Virus record (IMG/VR): IMGVR_UViG_3300025314_000001
Span: 42,686-106,685 of that record
Source of the DNA: a virus
Reading direction: 5' to 3' (one strand)
DNA length: 64,000 nt
The notes under the pieces were generated by a model. That model did no database searches, was not told where the DNA came from, and saw only the letters and a program-made list of their open reading frames with translations. Positions 4,716-64,000 of this stretch are shown piece after piece (position 1 is the stretch's first letter; every line of letters starts with the position of its first letter). The position numbers and the translations under genes were made by a program.

Positions 4716-5150
4716 CTACGGAGTGCGCCTTGATCGCGTCAGCACGACGAACCACGCCAACGGGTCGGTCGTGTCGAGATTCTGTACCTTGAATTCCCCC
4801 TCGTAGTCCCCGCTCAGCATGTACAGGATCTCGGTGTGCGTCGATCCTGTCGGCATCAGCTGAGCGCGCGAAAATCCTCCACCACTTCCTTGGGTAAAGG
4901 GTGGCGTGATGGGCCCGAGCTTTACGTCGCCCATCTCGTAGAGACCCCCGGAGCTGCTGACCTCACGCGCCGAGAGCTGGCGAACTGGGTATCGAATCGG
5001 GAGCACGGTATCGACGTCCCGGGGCGTGGTATTGGGCTGTCCAATCTTGCTCGGCCAGGTTCGTTCGCGTACCGTGACGGTGATGGTACGGATCGGGGTG
5101 GCGACGTTCCGAATTCGGTCGGCCACGAATCGGAAGCGGTCGAGGTTCAT
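4716..5150 (-). CDS. Head closure/stopper-like protein
   Basis: Position after the adaptor gene; beta-rich, 144 aa. Confidence 0.5.
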   Translation of the reverse strand: MNLDRFRFVADRIRNVATPIRTITVTVRERTWPSKIGQPNTTPRDVDTVLPIRYPVRQLSAREVSSSGGLYEMGDVKLGPITPPFTQGSGGGFSRAQLMPTGSTHTEILYMLSGDYEGEFKVQNLDTTDPLAWFVVLTRSRRTP

Positions 5151-42580: not shown

Positions 42581-42909
42581 CAGGTCACAACAGACTTACC
42601 GAGAATCATCTCAGGTAGATGCCCAAGACGGACCCGTGAGGAAACGAGCACCAGTGCATCCAGCTTTGCCGATTCAGCGTAGCGGTACAACTGGCGGGCT
42701 AGGGCCGAGAATGAACCACCGATCTTCACCTCGACCCCGATACGGCCAACCATGAAATCGATCCGATCGCGCTGAGACAGCCGTACCTCGCGCACGAATG
42801 GGACGCCCGAGTTATGTAACGCTTGAGCGATCCCATCCTGCAGAACGCGCTCGGTGCTAGTATCAAAACGATACGAACCGAGCAGAAGCACGAGGTCGGC
42901 TGGTGACAT
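42556..42909 (-). CDS. PD-(D/E)XK nuclease-like protein
   Basis: E..LQ, REV, RIDF..IGVEVK, QLYRY. Confidence 0.65.
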   Translation of the reverse strand: MSPADLVLLLGSYRFDTSTERVLQDGIAQALHNSGVPFVREVRLSQRDRIDFMVGRIGVEVKIGGSFSALARQLYRYAESAKLDALVLVSSRVRLGHLPEMILGKSVVTCCLLGSLL

Positions 42910-57110: not shown

Positions 57111-58313
57111 ATGGCCGAAATCAAGCTACCTCCGAGCAAGGGAGAAGATCCGGTTCCGATCGCCTACCTGAGCGACCAACAGCTCGGCTTCTGGGAGAAG
57201 TATCTCGGGGACCAGTTGCGCGACGACCCCGACGGGAAGTGGGCCTCGAGCAACCGGCTCAAGCTGGACACTGTCCAGAAAGAGCGGGCTGCACGCGCCA
57301 ACGGGAAGTCCCAGGCTCCGTCGACTCCGGCGGCCACCAAAGAGGCGCTTCACGAGCGCGTCAAGATTCCGCCGGAGCTCCTCATGCCCATCGAGGACCC
57401 GAAGGATTTCACGGCCCGGATGGCTGAGCTCGACAAGTACGCCAACCTACTGACTAGCGCGACAACGCTCGATACTCTTCCCCCCGGGTGTTCGCTCACT
57501 CTTGGCAAGCTCGACGTCTACGGGGACCCCTCGGACGGCATGGTCTACAAGCAAAAGAAAGACCCCACGGAAGGCGGTCCAGACCGGTTCTCGCTCGGCG
57601 GCGGGGCGCTGAAGAAATTGGCGCTCTTGGCAAACATCAAATATCTGGACCACAAGCCGGAGTTCCTGCCCGGAAATCCAGGTTACCGCGACGAATACGG
57701 GAAGTACCCGTATGGCCCGCCGCACCCGTTCTTCCAGCGCTGGACCTGCCGCGGGACGCGCGAAGAGCTCGACGGTAGCGTGCTCGACAAGACCGAGGAG
57801 AAGACGGTCGACCTACGGGACGGATCCCCCGAAGCGTCGATCCAAAGCGATAAGCAGCTCGCGCGCTCTCGCGTGAACATCGAGCAGGCCACGAAGACCA
57901 AGGCGAAGTACCGACTGGTCCGGGTGCTGCTCGGTCTGAACGACGCCTACACCCAGGTCCAGCTCTCCAAGTCGTTCGTCGTCGTGCGGCTGTACCGGCA
58001 CGGGAACTACGTGACGGGCAACGCGGAATTCGACTCCCAGATCAAGATGCTGAACTACCTCCGGGTGCACCAGGCCAATCTGCTGCTCTTCGGGAAGGGG
58101 CCGACCGAGGCGATTCACGAAGCCTCGAGGCTCCTGGAATCGCAGCTCAAGACGTCGGTGCCGGCGCAGCTACCGGCGGGCAGCCCGAAGCCTGCCGAGA
58201 CCTTCGACCGGGACGGGGTATCGGACCAGACCCAGGGCGCAGAAGAGGATGGGGACGATCCGGACGACGAAATCGACGACATGTCGGACTTCGGCGACAC
58301 CGACAAGGTCTAG
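57111..58313 (+). CDS. Putative ssDNA-annealing/recombination protein
   Basis: ATKTKAKYRLVR resembles SSAP motifs; acidic tail; precedes the exonuclease. Confidence 0.45.
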   Translation: MAEIKLPPSKGEDPVPIAYLSDQQLGFWEKYLGDQLRDDPDGKWASSNRLKLDTVQKERAARANGKSQAPSTPAATKEALHERVKIPPELLMPIEDPKDFTARMAELDKYANLLTSATTLDTLPPGCSLTLGKLDVYGDPSDGMVYKQKKDPTEGGPDRFSLGGGALKKLALLANIKYLDHKPEFLPGNPGYRDEYGKYPYGPPHPFFQRWTCRGTREELDGSVLDKTEEKTVDLRDGSPEASIQSDKQLARSRVNIEQATKTKAKYRLVRVLLGLNDAYTQVQLSKSFVVVRLYRHGNYVTGNAEFDSQIKMLNYLRVHQANLLLFGKGPTEAIHEASRLLESQLKTSVPAQLPAGSPKPAETFDRDGVSDQTQGAEEDGDDPDDEIDDMSDFGDTDKV

Positions 58314-58323
58314 GAGGACACCC

Positions 58324-59004
58324 GTGGCACCACGACTTCGATTGCCGGACGGCGCAGTCGTCCCGGCCGTGACCTCGATCATCAACCGGTTCAAGGACTC
58401 CGGTGCGCTCATCAACTGGGCGTGGCGCGTCGGCAAGGCCGGCGAGGACCTCCGGGGATTCCGGGACCCGGCGGCTGCTTCGGGCAAGATCGCGCACGCT
58501 TTGATCGACGCCCACAACAAGAGCCAGGCCCCCAGGATTCCGACTGCCATGGAGCTCGGAGTAGACCCCGACGTCTATAAGGTTGCCCTCATGCAGGGAC
58601 AGAATGGGTTCGAGGGGTTCAAGGAGTGGGCGTCGGCTGAGGAATTCTCGGTCATCCATAGCGAAATAGCGCTCGTGAGCTCAGAATACCGATTCGGTGG
58701 TGTGCTGGACGCCATCGGACGGTGGCGGGGCCGCCGGGTGGTCGCCGACTGGAAACTCGCGTCCGGGGTGTACCTGGAACACCTGTTGCAGTTAGCGGCC
58801 GAGCGCGTGCTTGCCCAGCAGAAGAAACCCGACGAGCCGCCGGACGTTCTGCTGCTCCAGATCGACAAGGGGACCGGGGAATGTATCCCCCACACCTGGT
58901 CGGTGGAGACCCTGGACGAAGCCTTCGAGATGTTCATGGCGCTTCGCCGGGCCTACAGCTTCGACGCGAAGCTCCAGGGGCTGTGTCGCGAGGTGGCGGC
59001 GTAA
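58324..59004 (+). CDS. PD-(D/E)XK exonuclease (RecB/Cas4-like phage exonuclease)
   Basis: PAVTSII, GKIAH, GGVLD..VADWK, QLAA. Confidence 0.82.
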   Translation: MAPRLRLPDGAVVPAVTSIINRFKDSGALINWAWRVGKAGEDLRGFRDPAAASGKIAHALIDAHNKSQAPRIPTAMELGVDPDVYKVALMQGQNGFEGFKEWASAEEFSVIHSEIALVSSEYRFGGVLDAIGRWRGRRVVADWKLASGVYLEHLLQLAAERVLAQQKKPDEPPDVLLLQIDKGTGECIPHTWSVETLDEAFEMFMALRRAYSFDAKLQGLCREVAA

Positions 59005-59450
59005 CCCTAAAGGCAAACCACCATGCGTATTTACAAGTACCAGTTCAATCCCCAGTTTGGGGAGTTCTCGATTCCTATGCCCAGAGGGGCACGTGTCCTT
59101 GGCGTGCAACTGCAGGCAGACACCCCATGCATCTGGGCGATTGTCGATCATCTCTGCAGGGAGATCCAGCACGGGTTCGTGTCGGTAGGTACCGGTCATG
59201 AACTACCCATGCCGAAGCATTCGGCGTTCGTAGGAACGGTCCAAATGGGTCCGCTGGTCTTTTCACCTGTTCGACCTGGGCGAAAAGTCGGGCTCCACGG
59301 CGTAGCCAAAAGACGTTGCCGGCCTTCTAGCGCTGTCCCGCGAACGTGGTGGGATGGCTCGAGTGAACGCCGGGGGAGGAACGCGGCTCCCTGAACCATG
59401 CGTGGCACCCCGGAGAGACGGGAACCCCACAAACCCAACCCGGAACCTGG

Positions 59451-60299
59451 ATGAAAACTCTATGCTTTTATCACCGCTCGGACCTTGACGGCCACTGCTC
59501 GGGCGCCATCGTGCACCGAGCTCATCCGGACGCCGAGCTCATCGGTATCGACTACGGGGACCCGTTCCCGTGGGACAAGATCGACAAGGAGACCGAGGTC
59601 ATCATGGTCGACTTCAGCATCCAGCCCATCGATGGCATGGTGCGGCTCCAGGAGTCCTGCGAACGGCTCGTGTGGATCGATCACCACGAGTCGGCCATCA
59701 AGGAGTCCGCGAAATACCCGGCGCTCTACATGACGCCCGGTCTCCGGTTGATCGGAAAGGCCGCCTGTGAGCTCGCTTGGGAGTGGTTCTTCGAACGATC
59801 GACAGTTCCGATGTCTGTGTTCCTGTTGGGGCGCTACGACGTTTGGGCGTTGGATGCTCACCCAGACGTCCTGCCCTTCCAGTACGGGATGCGGTCGCTA
59901 AAGAAAACCACCCCTGACTTCTCCCCGCTCTGGGTGGCGTTGTTCTCGGGCGACCCCGACTGCGTACAGCACCTTTGCGAGGTCGGCCGCACAGTGCTTG
60001 ATTTCCAGGACACTCAGGACGCCCAAGCCTGCGCCGGTTGCGCGTTTCCGGCAGAGCTCGCTGGCCTCAAGGTGATCGCGCTTAACCGTTCACTCGTGAA
60101 CTCGCGCTCCTTCAAGAGCGTTTGGGATCCGTCGCTCTACCAGGCCATGTGCGCGTTCGTTCGGCGACCGAACGGTATCTGGTCCGTGTCCCTCTACACG
60201 GACCGGGAAGACGTGGACGTCGGCGAGTTCTGTAAGCGGCACGGCGGTGGAGGGCACCGGAAGGCCGCGGGGTTCCAGATGAAGGCCTGCCCGTTCTGA
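59451..60299 (+). CDS. DHH/DHHA1 phosphoesterase
   Basis: DLDG, VDFS, IDHH, GGGGH.KAAGF. Confidence 0.92.
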   Translation: MKTLCFYHRSDLDGHCSGAIVHRAHPDAELIGIDYGDPFPWDKIDKETEVIMVDFSIQPIDGMVRLQESCERLVWIDHHESAIKESAKYPALYMTPGLRLIGKAACELAWEWFFERSTVPMSVFLLGRYDVWALDAHPDVLPFQYGMRSLKKTTPDFSPLWVALFSGDPDCVQHLCEVGRTVLDFQDTQDAQACAGCAFPAELAGLKVIALNRSLVNSRSFKSVWDPSLYQAMCAFVRRPNGIWSVSLYTDREDVDVGEFCKRHGGGGHRKAAGFQMKACPF

Positions 60300-60313
60300 G
60301 AAAGGAGACCACC

Positions 60314-60709
60314 ATGCTTCCAGAAAAGGTGATCGATATGGTCGAGCAGTGCGGAGGGAAAGTGGACGAAGTTGGGGTTTTACCCGACGGTTCGGGCTTC
60401 GCCACCGCGAGCTTTCCGCTTCGCGCCGACCACTGGCTCCACAAGCCGGGGTACAACGTACCGCCTATGCCGATGCGCGTTGGTACGGGTCCGGAGCGAG
60501 ATAGGCTTGCGGCACAAATCAGCGAAGCCGCGCGCTACGCCGTTCGCGTAACGACGGTGAACGGAGAGGATAATGACTACGACCCGGACGCCTGGGTACA
60601 GAACATGATCGTCGGCCTGCTCGGTTACTGGACTCAGGACGGGTTGAGTGCCGAAAGTTCGGATAACCCAGACGTGCTCCCTGACCCGTTCCCTCCGGGT
60701 AGCGAATGA
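60314..60709 (+). CDS. Hypothetical protein
   Basis: AGGAG RBS; coherent ORF. Confidence 0.6.
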   Translation: MLPEKVIDMVEQCGGKVDEVGVLPDGSGFATASFPLRADHWLHKPGYNVPPMPMRVGTGPERDRLAAQISEAARYAVRVTTVNGEDNDYDPDAWVQNMIVGLLGYWTQDGLSAESSDNPDVLPDPFPPGSE

Positions 60710-60714
60710 TTCTA

Positions 60715-61190
60715 GGGCGCGCACCTCGTCCTGCGTTGGAAGGCAGAACTCCCCGGCGGCGCACGCCTGGGGGGGAAGGTGCAGCTTTGCTGGCTCAAGG
60801 AAACCAGTACCCGAGGGCGGTGGTGCTCAGCCCCACGCGCCGGAGCGGACAATCCGGACCAGGCCCTGGAGGGCTAACGGTGGTGGCGGCGTGGCCAGAT
60901 GACACGCGCGTGCGAGCCATGCCCGCGGCTGCCGGCTCAACGGAGGTCGGCAGTGCTTGCGTACACCCACGGAAACGGGGTGCTCGTCCGGCCTCTCGTG
61001 TCTCGCTACGGGGCAGGGGTACAAATGCGTTCCGGACGAGTGTTCCGGCTGCACCACCGCCAAGCCCACGTGCTAGTTCACTATGAGGACCGACAGCAAC
61101 AATATCGATTCCTGCTCGTTCAATCAGTGCCAGTAGGCACTACCCCCCGCGACGTTCAGAGCGCCGGTTCGAGTCCGGCGCTCGGGGCAA
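60715..61190 (+). ncRNA. Candidate large structured ncRNA
   Basis: Nested long-range stems and many hairpins; ends in a T-loop hairpin. Strand inferred from the T-loop and GAAA loop. Confidence 0.5.
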
Positions 61191-61233
61191 CAATTATCAC
61201 CAACACAGTTGACATCTAACGACGGAAATACTA

Positions 61234-62961
61234 ATGACACGCACAGTACAACGTTCGAGTCTGGGTCGTCGCAGGAAGGGTGACCTCCACTCACCCAAAG
61301 GCGAGGCCAAGATGCACTCAGCCAAACTTGAGCTCACGCGCTCAAGTCCTCTGCATCCCGGCGACCTGGACTCGAGCGCTGCACCGTCTAAGGGACCCAA
61401 GTCGCTTGGGTCAGCGGATCTTGACCTGGCTCGGGAGTGGCTCACATCAGAACTCCTGTTGCGTGGAGTTCAGAAGCCAGTCGTCTTCCGTGCCCGCAAG
61501 GGCCACGGCGTCGAAGTAAAAGACGGAAAACGCAAGCTTGGGCAGCTCGATAACACTGAGTTGCTTACGCATGATACATCGGCGATCGATGGGTTGTTCC
61601 GAATACGAGGATGCCTCAAGGTTGAGTTGAACCCTGCGGATGCGGCAGAGAGTAGCTGGCTGTTGTTCGGTCTCTCTCGGGCTGTTGTAGCCGGGCAGAG
61701 AGCGGCAGTATTATCGCTGTTCCGTGGTGACAACGGAACAGTCAACGCAGGAACTCACGCATATCGGGTTCTATCCGCGACAGTGACCGATTTCTTGTCG
61801 AAGTCCAAAGATGACCGCGTTCACGGTCTATCCGTGTGCGGAGATGTCATGGCGATGGCCAGCAAATTGGCGGCCGACAAGTTTGCTTTGTGGCAACGTT
61901 CGAACCAAGCCGACCAGTCTCCGCCATGGTTCACATCTATCTCGATGCCAATCAAGGATTCCCGCTATCGGCTTGAGTTGCAGGGCAGAGAACTGTATGT
62001 GACCCTGGGAGTCCAGGGTGCTGTAGAGCGTCGGATCCCTGAGATCCGATTCAAGGCCTACGGTAGGGGGCCATCGGCTTGGGCGGATATCCGGCGACTT
62101 CTCTCTGGTGAGTACGCGCGCGCCGCGGCCCGGCTGGTATGGGACTGCAACAGACGACGTTGGACGCTAAATATCTCCTACTCGCGGGCGCGTCCGGAGC
62201 TGCAGAGCGGGACCGGCGCGATGGCCGTATGCCCCGGCATTGACTCGTTCGTGCGGTGCTACACAGACGATGCCTGGAAAGGTCCACAGGACAACACAGC
62301 GAGCCTGGTAGCGTTCAAGCTTGGGCTTGACGCCCGCAAAGCGAGCCGCGGTCAACACAAGGACTTCCAGGGCCATGGTGCACGCGGCCACGGAGTGAAA
62401 CGGTTCACTCGATTACTGCGGCACTTCTCCGAGTTGGAAACAAACTTTACACGAACCCACATCGAACAGGCAGCGTCTCGCGTCCGGCGCCTCGCCACTG
62501 GGGACCGGCTAGGGAAACATGGCTGGAATGAGACGCGAGGCCCCGTCGGGGAGGTCCTAGTTGCTGATTTCGGTAACTTCTGCCCCACGCACTCGAATGC
62601 TCGGGTGGAGAAGATCCTGCGCCGATATCCAATCTGTACCGCACGCGACAAGATCTGCTGGGCCCTTACCAAGGCAGGAATCCCCCATCGAGTCGTCAAG
62701 CCGACAAACGTTTGCCCTCACTGTGGCAAATCCAAGCTGAAGCACTTTTGCGGTTATGACTGGGTCTGTCCGGAATGCCATCTGGTGGCACCTAGAGACC
62801 TATGGACCGGATGGCAGACATTTGTCGCCGGTGGCGCCAGCTCCCACTACGACCTAATCGAGGTAGGTAAGGCTTTCAAAAAGGCAGCCGAATTCGCGGA
62901 CTCTGTCCGCAGAAAGGCGATCAACCATGGAACCGAAGAAACTGACGAAGCTGCTCAATGA
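61234..62961 (+). CDS. Cas12f/TnpB-family effector, predicted nuclease-dead
   Basis: GEY..ARLVWD..RRWTLNISY (WED), AVCPG (RuvC-I, D>C), RGHGVKR..NF (Cas12f1-like), VLVADF (RuvC-II, E>A), CPHCG/CPEC zinc finger, PRDL (RuvC-III); adjacent CRISPR array. Alternative start at ATG 61312. Confidence 0.8.
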   Translation: MTRTVQRSSLGRRRKGDLHSPKGEAKMHSAKLELTRSSPLHPGDLDSSAAPSKGPKSLGSADLDLAREWLTSELLLRGVQKPVVFRARKGHGVEVKDGKRKLGQLDNTELLTHDTSAIDGLFRIRGCLKVELNPADAAESSWLLFGLSRAVVAGQRAAVLSLFRGDNGTVNAGTHAYRVLSATVTDFLSKSKDDRVHGLSVCGDVMAMASKLAADKFALWQRSNQADQSPPWFTSISMPIKDSRYRLELQGRELYVTLGVQGAVERRIPEIRFKAYGRGPSAWADIRRLLSGEYARAAARLVWDCNRRRWTLNISYSRARPELQSGTGAMAVCPGIDSFVRCYTDDAWKGPQDNTASLVAFKLGLDARKASRGQHKDFQGHGARGHGVKRFTRLLRHFSELETNFTRTHIEQAASRVRRLATGDRLGKHGWNETRGPVGEVLVADFGNFCPTHSNARVEKILRRYPICTARDKICWALTKAGIPHRVVKPTNVCPHCGKSKLKHFCGYDWVCPECHLVAPRDLWTGWQTFVAGGASSHYDLIEVGKAFKKAAEFADSVRRKAINHGTEETDEAAQ

Positions 62962-63658
62962 CGCTGGAATCGTATTTGCGCACTGGACCGACTGGGAACT
63001 AGTCCAACGCGAGCTGGCGAACTTTCGAGTTGCACGGGACAAAGCAGAGTCGAGTTACTGTCTGTTCTTGCACGCGGTCGAAACGCGGTCGGCAGATTGG
63101 CGCTCTGGATTGGACTCCAAAGAACCACAGACGTTCGATCACTGGTTACGGAAGAACGCGCTCCACGAAGACCCGGCGCGCTATCGAGCGATGCTATCGG
63201 TAATCGACGATAATGGCTTGGAATGGGTGCAGCGTGTTGGTCCTCTTGCTGCCGCTACGGTGGCCAAGAACCTTCCTCCCGAACTCCGCTCTGAGGGTTT
63301 TGCACGACTAGCCGATAAGCGTGCGGAGATTGGTCAACCGGTCTCACCCAAGACCGCACCGTCAATCATTCAGTCAATCAAGTCGGCGCATCCCGATGTG
63401 TGCCCTTCAACTCCTAAGCGTCCCGAGATTGCGAAGCTACGCGACAAAGTACACACAGCCCGCGTTCATTCCCATTCGCTGGAGAATGAGTTGCGGGAAG
63501 CGAGAACTGCTATCACCGAGCGCGACCGAACGATCGCCCGACTAGAGATTGAGAATATGGAACTTCGCGAGCGGCTCAGTGCTGCTCAAACAGCCTTAGG
63601 CGCTCGCGCTACGCGCAAACCATCGGAATCGCATACTTCTCCGGCTCCGGCCGAGTAG
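62927..63658 (+). CDS. Unknown CRISPR-adjacent protein with C-terminal coiled coil
   Basis: 243 aa; overlaps the effector by 35 nt; lies between effector and array. Confidence 0.75.
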   Translation: MEPKKLTKLLNDAGIVFAHWTDWELVQRELANFRVARDKAESSYCLFLHAVETRSADWRSGLDSKEPQTFDHWLRKNALHEDPARYRAMLSVIDDNGLEWVQRVGPLAAATVAKNLPPELRSEGFARLADKRAEIGQPVSPKTAPSIIQSIKSAHPDVCPSTPKRPEIAKLRDKVHTARVHSHSLENELREARTAITERDRTIARLEIENMELRERLSAAQTALGARATRKPSESHTSPAPAE

Positions 63659-63755
63659 GCGATAACCCATCGGGTAGTGAAAAAGGACACCCGTGCATGA
63701 CCCGCTCGCAAGTTGCTGCGCAACGCATCAGGATCGTGGAGGTTCTAGCGAGCGG

Positions 63756-64000
63756 GTCGGAACGGAGAACAGGATGCGGAGGCAGTGGAGCTCGATGGGG
63801 CTCCGCCTCCTAGGGAGGACTGGACCGGTCGGAACGGAGAACAGGATGCGGAGGCAGTGGAGCATACCGACCAGCGTGCGCGTGGGTGAGCGGGTCATTG
63901 TCGGAACGGAGAACAGGATGCGGAGGCAGTGGAGCCCACTCGTCGGGCGGCTCGTCGTGCAGGGGTGCTGCAGTCGGAACGGAGAACAGGATGCGGAGGC
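63756..64000 (+). CRISPR. CRISPR array (at least 4 repeats, truncated by the window end)
   Basis: 36-bp repeat GTCGGAACGGAGAACAGGATGCGGAGGCAGTGGAGC at 63756, 63828, 63900 and 63973 (partial); unique spacers of 36, 36 and 37 bp. Orientation inferred. Confidence 0.95.

Follow-up and report, generated by a model that had tools for sequence, protein, structure and literature searches.

What is the role of a small protein whose gene lies between a Cas12f-like effector and a CRISPR array in the genome of a phage? This question is raised by a stretch of 64,000 nucleotides (nt) of the IMG/VR virus record IMGVR_UViG_3300025314_000001 (positions 42,686 to 106,685; called the window hereafter), which is the last 64 kb of the 106,685-bp record. 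The gene starts with ATG, encodes 243 amino acid residues, and spans 62927–63658 on the plus strand, with its stop codon at 63656–63658. In a first-pass annotation of the window, the gene was described as coupled between a dead effector and the array and was considered to encode a candidate new Cas accessory subunit that supplies the output of the effector. Its location was confirmed: namely, the preceding effector open reading frame (ORF; 575 residues as listed, 61234–62961, plus strand) shares 35 nt with the gene, and 97 nt separate the stop codon of the gene from repeat 1 of the array at 63756. As described below, this protein, which we call the accessory protein, is specifically linked to the effector and the array across divergent loci, and a short box is conserved at a fixed distance from repeat 1 in the leader of the array. 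Our favored, still tentative answer to the question is that the accessory protein is a dimeric, module-specific DNA-binding protein that would bind this leader box and control the array.

The ORF of the accessory protein is a real gene beyond a chance ORF. When the gene was compared with its 66%-identical homolog in a related locus (L010), mismatches were found 66, 35, and 140 times at the codon positions 1, 2, and 3, respectively, and the changed codons comprised 85 synonymous and 83 non-synonymous ones; no excess at the third position was seen in the two alternative frames. Because the substitutions are mostly at the third position, the ORF codes for a protein. Also, a Shine–Dalgarno-like sequence (CAGAAAGG; 62909–62916, plus strand) is present within the effector ORF 11 nt before the ATG of the accessory gene, and its CAGAAAG element is kept at the corresponding site in L010, L011, and L013, being 13–15 nt from the ATG in both clades of the family. 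By a word-indexed search of 5.8 billion proteins, four full-length homologs were obtained at 51–66% identity; by HMMER, applied exhaustively to 1.84 billion representatives, six further homologs (183–228 residues, 25–35% identity) with the same layout were added, and a profile search gave two more members. Over the full length, five proteins are 51–100% identical, and six to eight more are 22–30% identical. The family is hence very rare, with about 13 clusters among the 5.8 billion proteins, and no fused forms were found in the exhaustive HMMER search, which had no length limit. A 2054-residue protein with PKD repeats (P0007, E 4e-9) was rejected as a chance similarity multiplied by its repeats.

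As for known families, no above-threshold match to the accessory family was found in Pfam, PHROGs, NCBIfam, and PADLOC, and the sub-threshold matches in these libraries were coiled-coil noise at residues 160–235; the PADLOC matches to PbeC and LmuB, which span only the coiled coil, were rejected. In particular, the hidden Markov models of Cas1/2/4 and TniQ-Tns families (Pfam, NCBIfam, and PADLOC) and the sigma-factor families (Pfam and NCBIfam) did not match the accessory protein, and three-helix matches to sigma domains reached Z scores of only 4.4–4.7 over about 60 residues. The earlier remark that the protein resembles neither Cas1/2/4, a sigma factor, nor Tns proteins therefore holds across the four libraries.

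We then come to the neighborhood of the gene. In all seven contexts that could be read, the accessory gene was placed between a homolog of the same Cas12f-like effector and a CRISPR array; these contexts are the window, L010, L011, L012, L013, and the contigs carrying P0004/P0014 and P0005/P0013, and the count excludes P0003, P0008–P0012, and P0017. P0004 and P0014 (62,528 nt) as well as P0005 and P0013 (2,636 nt) are each very probably on one contig because their source contigs are equal in nt. In L010, the effector has 603 residues, its ORF overlaps the accessory gene by 35 nt, and three repeats follow; in L011 and L012, the corresponding values are 657 residues, 47 nt from the ATG matching P0016, and about 20 repeats, and in L013, 629 residues, 4 nt (ATGA), and about 28 repeats. 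These loci form two clades, between which the accessory proteins are about 25% and the effectors about 39% identical, and they effectively represent three independent lineages: the window with L010 and the two short contigs, L011–L012, and L013. Indeed, when IMG/VR was scanned with the effector alignment, the same three contigs were returned as with the accessory alignments. Divergent loci thus keep the gene next to a cas effector and an array, which is one of the marks that operationally define a CRISPR-associated accessory, and the gene-neighborhood search proposed in the first-pass annotation supports its view of specific CRISPR association (seven of seven contexts, two clades); the alternative outcome considered there, in which most homologs would lack type V effectors, did not appear in the readable contexts. 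No more accessory loci were obtained from a metagenome scan (query A1), genome scans (A3 and P0012), or viral scans with P0009, P0012, and P0011. L014 and L015, which are weak partial matches inside an unrelated 377-residue protein without a family match, were set aside.

In the flanks, no other ORF common to the loci was found within 6–10 kb on either side, even between the window and its closest relative L010, suggesting that the three parts constitute a portable cassette in otherwise unrelated phages. The accessory protein might, in principle, be a hitch-hiker, that is, an unrelated phage regulator or partition-type protein that happens to lie next to the CRISPR module; its N-terminal domain, as described later, resembles DUF3102/ParB-type domains, which are common in phages and plasmids. 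Such an explanation is nonetheless extremely improbable, given that all seven readable contexts retain the linkage, down to about 25% identity and in the absence of any other common neighbor, and that no member could be placed in a different context by HMMER over the 1.84 billion representatives. Upstream of the module in the window, genes at 57111–60709 are of the typical phage replication/recombination type (400-residue, 251-residue, and 282-residue DHH-like proteins, by motif reading only), and none of them is common to the other module-bearing loci. We also noticed that the CheckV completeness is 19% for G002 (98.5 kb, L011) and 13% for G003 (67 kb, L012). The module of the distant clade may reside in very large (jumbo) phages, whereas the phage of the window has a complete genome of 106.7 kb.

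The 97-nt gap between the accessory gene and the array contains the feature on which our reading turns. A leader box, GACCCGCTCGC(AAG), occupies 63699–63712 on the plus strand and starts 57 nt upstream of repeat 1, and an inverted copy at 63745–63758 on the minus strand overlaps the first 3 nt of repeat 1. The 11-nt consensus of the box is GACCC(G/T)CTCG(C/T), and its 10-mer ACCC[GT]CTCG[CT] has just two copies in the whole 106.7-kb genome, both of which are in the 97-nt gap in opposite orientation. The box is also present in the leaders of L010, L011, L012, and L013, and its plus-strand copy starts 56–57 nt upstream of repeat 1 in five of the five loci. It is kept although the clades differ in their repeats, the leaders are otherwise unalignable, and the effectors and accessory proteins are only 39% and about 25% identical, respectively. 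The exact 11-mer occurs once or twice per complete related record, and a reversed control pattern does not occur. The second box varies in its placement: it is 46 nt downstream of the first in the window and directly upstream, forming a palindrome, in L013, and L011 and L012 have a pair some 200 nt upstream. For a box to retain its sequence and position despite such divergence, a sequence-specific reader must be conserved as well, and the conserved proteins of the module are the RNA-guided effector and the accessory protein only.

Side by side with the box, we noticed that the last ~40 nt of the leader (63720–63755; 10780–10814 in L010) look like a degenerate repeat (CAGGATCGTGGAGG compared with CAGGATGCGGAGG of the repeat), which is kept between the window and L010. 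The "spacer" after this degenerate repeat would be the inverted box, so a self-directed autoregulatory guide similar to CreR or tracr-L is conceivable.

Is the accessory protein, then, built like a DNA-binding protein? The AlphaFold2 model of the full-length protein (11-sequence alignment; predicted local distance difference test (pLDDT), 84.8) reproduces the layout that had been read in the first-pass annotation: namely, ten helices in residues 3–154, a linker, a single helix of residues 166–228, and a disordered tail. On the plus strand of the window, the N-terminal helical domain (N-domain, residues 1–155) corresponds to 62927–63391, the unstructured Pro-rich linker HPDVCPSTPKRPE (about residues 155–165) to 63392–63421, and the 63-residue coiled-coil helix to 63422–63610, and the tail after residue 228 ends with PAE. 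When residues 1–160 were modeled alone, the pLDDT was 92.5 and the predicted TM score 0.85. The residues invariant throughout the family are W58, F70 (in the motif TFDHWLRKN at residues 69–77), R85, Y86, G105, and P138, and the helix of residues 83–96 opens with P83-x-R85-Y86. Of the 11 members, 8 have a basic N-domain, and all have a basic C-terminal part.

In the structural comparison by VIA-align, the largest-coverage matches of the N-domain were the alpha domain of Raf1 (a Rubisco chaperone; Z 6.9, level with ParB) and the DNA-binding domains of ParB (6s6h_B; Z 6.8, rmsd 4.1, 115 residues aligned), Spo0J (1vz0_A; Z 5.9, 104 residues), and KorB (1r71_A; Z 5.0, 108 residues), with scores in a range that VIA-align itself calls common for helical models. 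The non-significant list of BFVD matches to the N-domain was headed by Spo0J/ParB-like phage proteins, and the language-model clusters nearest to the N-domain in the ESM Atlas were DUF3102 and plasmid-partition proteins (score, 0.92). DUF3102 also accounts for 9 of the 30 feature-space neighbors of the accessory protein and includes a structural neighbor with TM 0.46. From three independent, individually weak leads, therefore, the N-domain is only weakly suggested to be a ParB/KorB/DUF3102-like helical domain of the DNA-binding type. A helical domain of about 110 residues aligns with those of ParB, Spo0J, and KorB (6s6h, 1vz0, and 1r71) at Z 5.0–6.8, which is within chance helical resemblance; as in these proteins, a separate, putative dimerization element comes after the domain, and the candidate partner DNA of the accessory protein has an inverted repeat. 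Unlike these proteins, its N-terminus is wholly occupied by the helical domain, with no match to the ParB/Srx CTPase domain in any member (Pfam and NCBIfam) and no Pfam ParB or helix-turn-helix (HTH) match, and its predicted dimerization is by the coiled coil. The likeness to DUF3102 proteins of phages and plasmids is one of feature space, with the Pfam model unmatched.

As for the long helix, coiled coils dominated the results when folds were searched with the full-length model, and these were set aside; GCN4-type chains lead the PDB sequence search via the long helix only, and the leucine-zipper model bZIP_1 was matched in P0008 (E 4e-5; 24.0 bits for a cut-off of 27.6) and more weakly in three other members. 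The matches of this helix are with generic coiled coils only. A further parallel is one of architecture. KfrA-type plasmid proteins combine an N-terminal DNA-binding domain with a long coiled coil and have a site-specific operator beside their gene. The accessory protein has the same two-part architecture and a nearby site; the likeness is limited to this architecture, and KfrA_N did not match the accessory protein of the window.

Taken together with the leader box, we infer that the accessory protein is the reader of the box. The HTH-like N-domain would bind GACCC(G/T)CTCG(C/T) in the CRISPR leader, with the invariant P83-x-R85-Y86 opening its candidate recognition helix. Two N-domains would be paired by the C-terminal coiled coil and, through the flexible Pro-rich linker, could extend to second boxes whose spacing and orientation vary; DNA-binding-like domains that are tethered by flexible linkers to a dimerizing coiled coil would be suited to half-sites at variable distances. 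Binding at the box 56–57 nt upstream of repeat 1 might control the transcription of precursor CRISPR RNA (pre-crRNA) or otherwise mark the leader, and translational coupling with the effector gene would tie the amount of the accessory protein to that of the effector.

Several points weigh against this reading. The complete linkage leaves out six family members (P0008–P0012 and P0017). Every structural Z score of the N-domain is less than 7, which is below proof of an HTH, and the Raf1 alpha domain equals ParB in this respect. A Foldseek search of the N-domain in PDB and BFVD gave no match at E ≤ 0.001, and the Pfam model of DUF3102 (PF11300) matched neither the 11 members nor the six-frame translated genome at E ≤ 10. 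Also, a scan of the leader for the sigma-70 consensus did not reveal a promoter-like site, leaving the regulatory effect unanchored, and a host factor or the effector complex itself could be the reader of the box. The conserved overlap of the effector and accessory genes (35, 35, 47, and 4 nt), furthermore, fits a stoichiometric partner of the effector at least equally well.

That last point leads to the effector, which needs to be considered in its own right. A profile of six effector homologs matched the AsCas12f structures 7wju, 8j1j, 8dzj, and 8j12 with E of about 3e-11, in which the profile positions 199–420 align with residues 85–313 of the Cas12f chain (WED and RuvC-I regions). The best PADLOC models are Cas12u3 and Cas12f, and a weak match to the Cas12f1-like TNB zinc ribbon was found in Pfam. 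The RuvC-I residue D337, which lies in CPG-I/V/L-DS, does not vary and corresponds in the alignment to the aspartate of GID(L)G in AsCas12f, the CxxC...CxxC zinc ribbon is retained, and the third acidic residue (PRD) is Asp in five sequences and Glu in one. In Cas12 and TnpB proteins, RuvC-II is marked by a hydrophobic strand followed by E-D-L. The corresponding motif in the effector family reads VLVADF, VVVSDF, VLVNSF, or VLLHDW, the position of Glu being Ala, Ser, Asn, or His; all database matches stop just before RuvC-II. Judging from these motifs, the effector has likely lost the RuvC-II glutamate and is probably nuclease-dead, in line with the description of it as a dead effector in the first-pass annotation. 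On the other hand, a weak alignment of 9.5 bits places an invariant Glu four residues upstream (E440) opposite the glutamate of CnCas12f. Compared with Cas12f (V-F) of the V-U3 type, the effector is larger (575–657 residues) and phage-borne.

If the effector is dead, an added function supplied by a partner is plausible. The accessory protein might be an effector-bound output subunit, which by means of its coiled coil and DNA-binding-like domain would dimerize, clamp, or bridge complexes on target DNA or recruit a host factor, so that RNA-guided binding is turned into silencing or exclusion of competitors. Strict co-occurrence with the effector and the gene overlap, which is kept in both clades and suggests translational coupling, would be consistent with this role, and Cas12k–TniQ/TnsC and dCas12f–sigmaE (PMC13472631) serve as precedents. 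The two proteins were, however, found to diverge out of step: the identities between the window and the 2,636-nt contig are 80% for the effector but 51% for the accessory protein, those between L011 and L013 are 73% and 45%, and those between the window and L010 are 56% and 66%, respectively. Such discordance is unlike the case of sigmaE with dCas12f. The conserved leader box, moreover, is left unexplained, and the binding-only type V effectors Cas12c and Cas12m work without a partner (PMC12669027). We therefore regard the output subunit as rather doubtful, and the earlier proposal is supported in part only, namely as to the CRISPR association and the probable loss of the RuvC-II glutamate; the divergence is discordant, and the leader box points to a leader-binding regulator instead. 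A combined role, in which the accessory protein binds both the dead effector and DNA, is unlikely as well; the ParB/KorB-like domain and the coiled coil would then yield a new output, e.g., bridging or spreading silencing of competitor DNA, with the box as a loading or autoregulatory site.

A precedent for a leader-binding regulator is found in the dCas12f–sigmaE (rpoE–dcas12f) loci, in which experiments showed that HTH proteins bind to inverted repeats adjacent to the genes encoding them and that targeting does not require these proteins (Hoffmann, Wiegand et al., PMC13472631). This HTH protein also evolves out of step with dCas12f (PMC13472631). Similar to the HTH proteins, the accessory protein is a small protein, putatively of the DNA-binding type, linked to a probably dead Cas12f homolog, inverted repeats adjoin its gene, and its divergence is discordant with that of the effector. 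No relation in sequence or family was detected between the two, and several differences should be noted: the accessory gene overlaps the effector gene, the box is located between the accessory gene and a multi-spacer array but not upstream of its own start, the accessory protein contains a long coiled coil, and its loci are phage-borne and have no sigma factor. Given this precedent and the conserved leader box, a leader-binding regulator is favored over an output subunit.

RNA might also be the partner of the accessory protein. The first-pass annotation noted that the gene takes the place where Cas12f loci usually carry the trans-activating CRISPR RNA (tracrRNA), but this slot is probably filled elsewhere. 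At 61250–61397 on the plus strand (8243–8390 in L010), within the 5′ part of the effector ORF as annotated, we found a candidate for a conserved structured RNA. Its DNA identity to L010 is 84–91% (50–65% in the rest of the effector gene), and its substitutions show no bias in codon position (8/10/14). The fold z-scores are −5.6 and −6.4 in the window and L010, respectively, with the same long-stem, three-hairpin fold and compensatory changes in the closing stem, and one hairpin loop shows CCUCCAC, which is complementary to GUGGAG at the 3′ side of the repeat. The effectors of L011–L013 do not have this N-terminal stretch, and the true effector start may be the ATG at 61312 (GTG at 8308 in L010). 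The segment probably represents an RNA of the tracr or scout kind or an element of the 5′ untranslated region. No match to Rfam was found at the locus, no long anti-repeat was outstanding by duplex energy in 60600–63760, and the gene-free region of about 470 nt upstream of the effector (60715–61190) has no conservation with L010.

The accessory protein could hence be an RNA-binding helper that binds the leader, the pre-crRNA, or the 5′ structured RNA and aids the processing or loading of guides, for which a dead RuvC site would be unable. The protein is basic, a structured RNA is conserved beside the effector, and the leader boxes of the window can form a stem including the start of repeat 1. 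This box-to-box hairpin is, however, not conserved: the window has a fold z-score of −1.9 but L010 one of −0.2, and in L011 and L013 the partner box is placed elsewhere. Nor was any known fold for RNA binding found. An RNA-binding helper is accordingly very improbable.

The array itself provides a further clue. Its 36-nt repeats run from 63756 to 64000 on the plus strand and then across an artificial contig end to the contig position 1391. The 76-bp "terminal repeat" of the record sits within the array and includes a unique spacer, indicating that the genome was circularly assembled and that the array resumes at the contig start. Counted over its whole extent, it comprises 22 repeats with 21 spacers (34–39 nt) and closes with a truncated repeat (GTCGGAACGGAGAACAGGAATG...), and the spacers 11 and 19 are identical 37-mers (beyond the window end, contig positions 629–1391). 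No spacer targets were found in the genome of the phage itself or in GenBank phages, only array-to-array similarity was seen with the three related phage records, and the duplicated spacer had no exact match in IMG/VR. Nor was Cas1 found in the four phage records. Long and diverse arrays argue for a role in conflict or interference rather than the regulation of a single target, and such arrays without Cas1 would favor an output subunit of an interfering effector. In L013, a lone copy of the repeat is present at 4793–4824, directly 3′ of the accessory stop codon and about 250 nt before the array proper. The arrays of L011 (9885–10417), L012 (5660–6266), and L013 (5882–7092) contain at least two repeat variants (36 nt and a shorter one of 32–34 nt) that are interleaved or in blocks, and such a mixture in the distant clade suggests array fusion or decay.

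The unique spacers in arrays of 3 to about 28 repeats, together with the lack of Cas1 in the phage records, would also be accounted for by a leader-architecture factor for spacer acquisition, which directs a host Cas1–Cas2 integrase to the phage array. Integration host factor (IHF) acts as such a leader factor in type I systems. The box fixed at 56–57 nt from repeat 1 in all the loci would be consistent with an IHF-like role, but the idea is purely inferential, and the fixed distance could equally be promoter geometry; we thus find it improbable.

How does this module compare with known systems? Among inactivated type V effectors, V-C, V-M, and V-K are known, and V-O, V-P, and Cas12b3 have been predicted (PMC12669027; PMC11656645). 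Multicomponent Cas12 loci have been described with Cas3, with IscB and an HTH protein, and with TPR-DUF3800 (PMC10910872), and a cluster of array-associated dCas12f without sigmaE has been mentioned (Hoffmann et al., PMC13472631). Cas12r, which is also a phage system, has nuclease activity and lacks a partner of this kind. With TniQ/TnsC–Cas12k and sigmaE–dCas12f, the present module has in common a dead or probably dead RNA-guided binder genetically coupled to a possible output protein; the accessory protein has no homology to any of those partners. No description of the accessory family or the leader box was found in the open-access texts that were searched, where absence is not proof of novelty. 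These comparisons suggest that the module is an inactivated type V-F-like system with a dedicated partner of the DNA-binding type.

In conclusion, dead type V effectors have been known either as lone roadblocks (Cas12c and Cas12m) or with output partners (TniQ/TnsC and sigmaE), and the module examined here represents a third arrangement, in which a compact, phage-borne, and apparently dead Cas12f-like effector is accompanied by an unannotated protein, a leader box, and a multi-spacer array. Between unrelated phages, this module travels as a self-contained cassette. Provided that the accessory protein indeed controls the array, the module would be a simple and testable case in which a viral CRISPR array has a transcriptional control of its own; should it bind the effector as well, the protein would represent a new Cas accessory family, and the module might serve as a small module for programmable repression.

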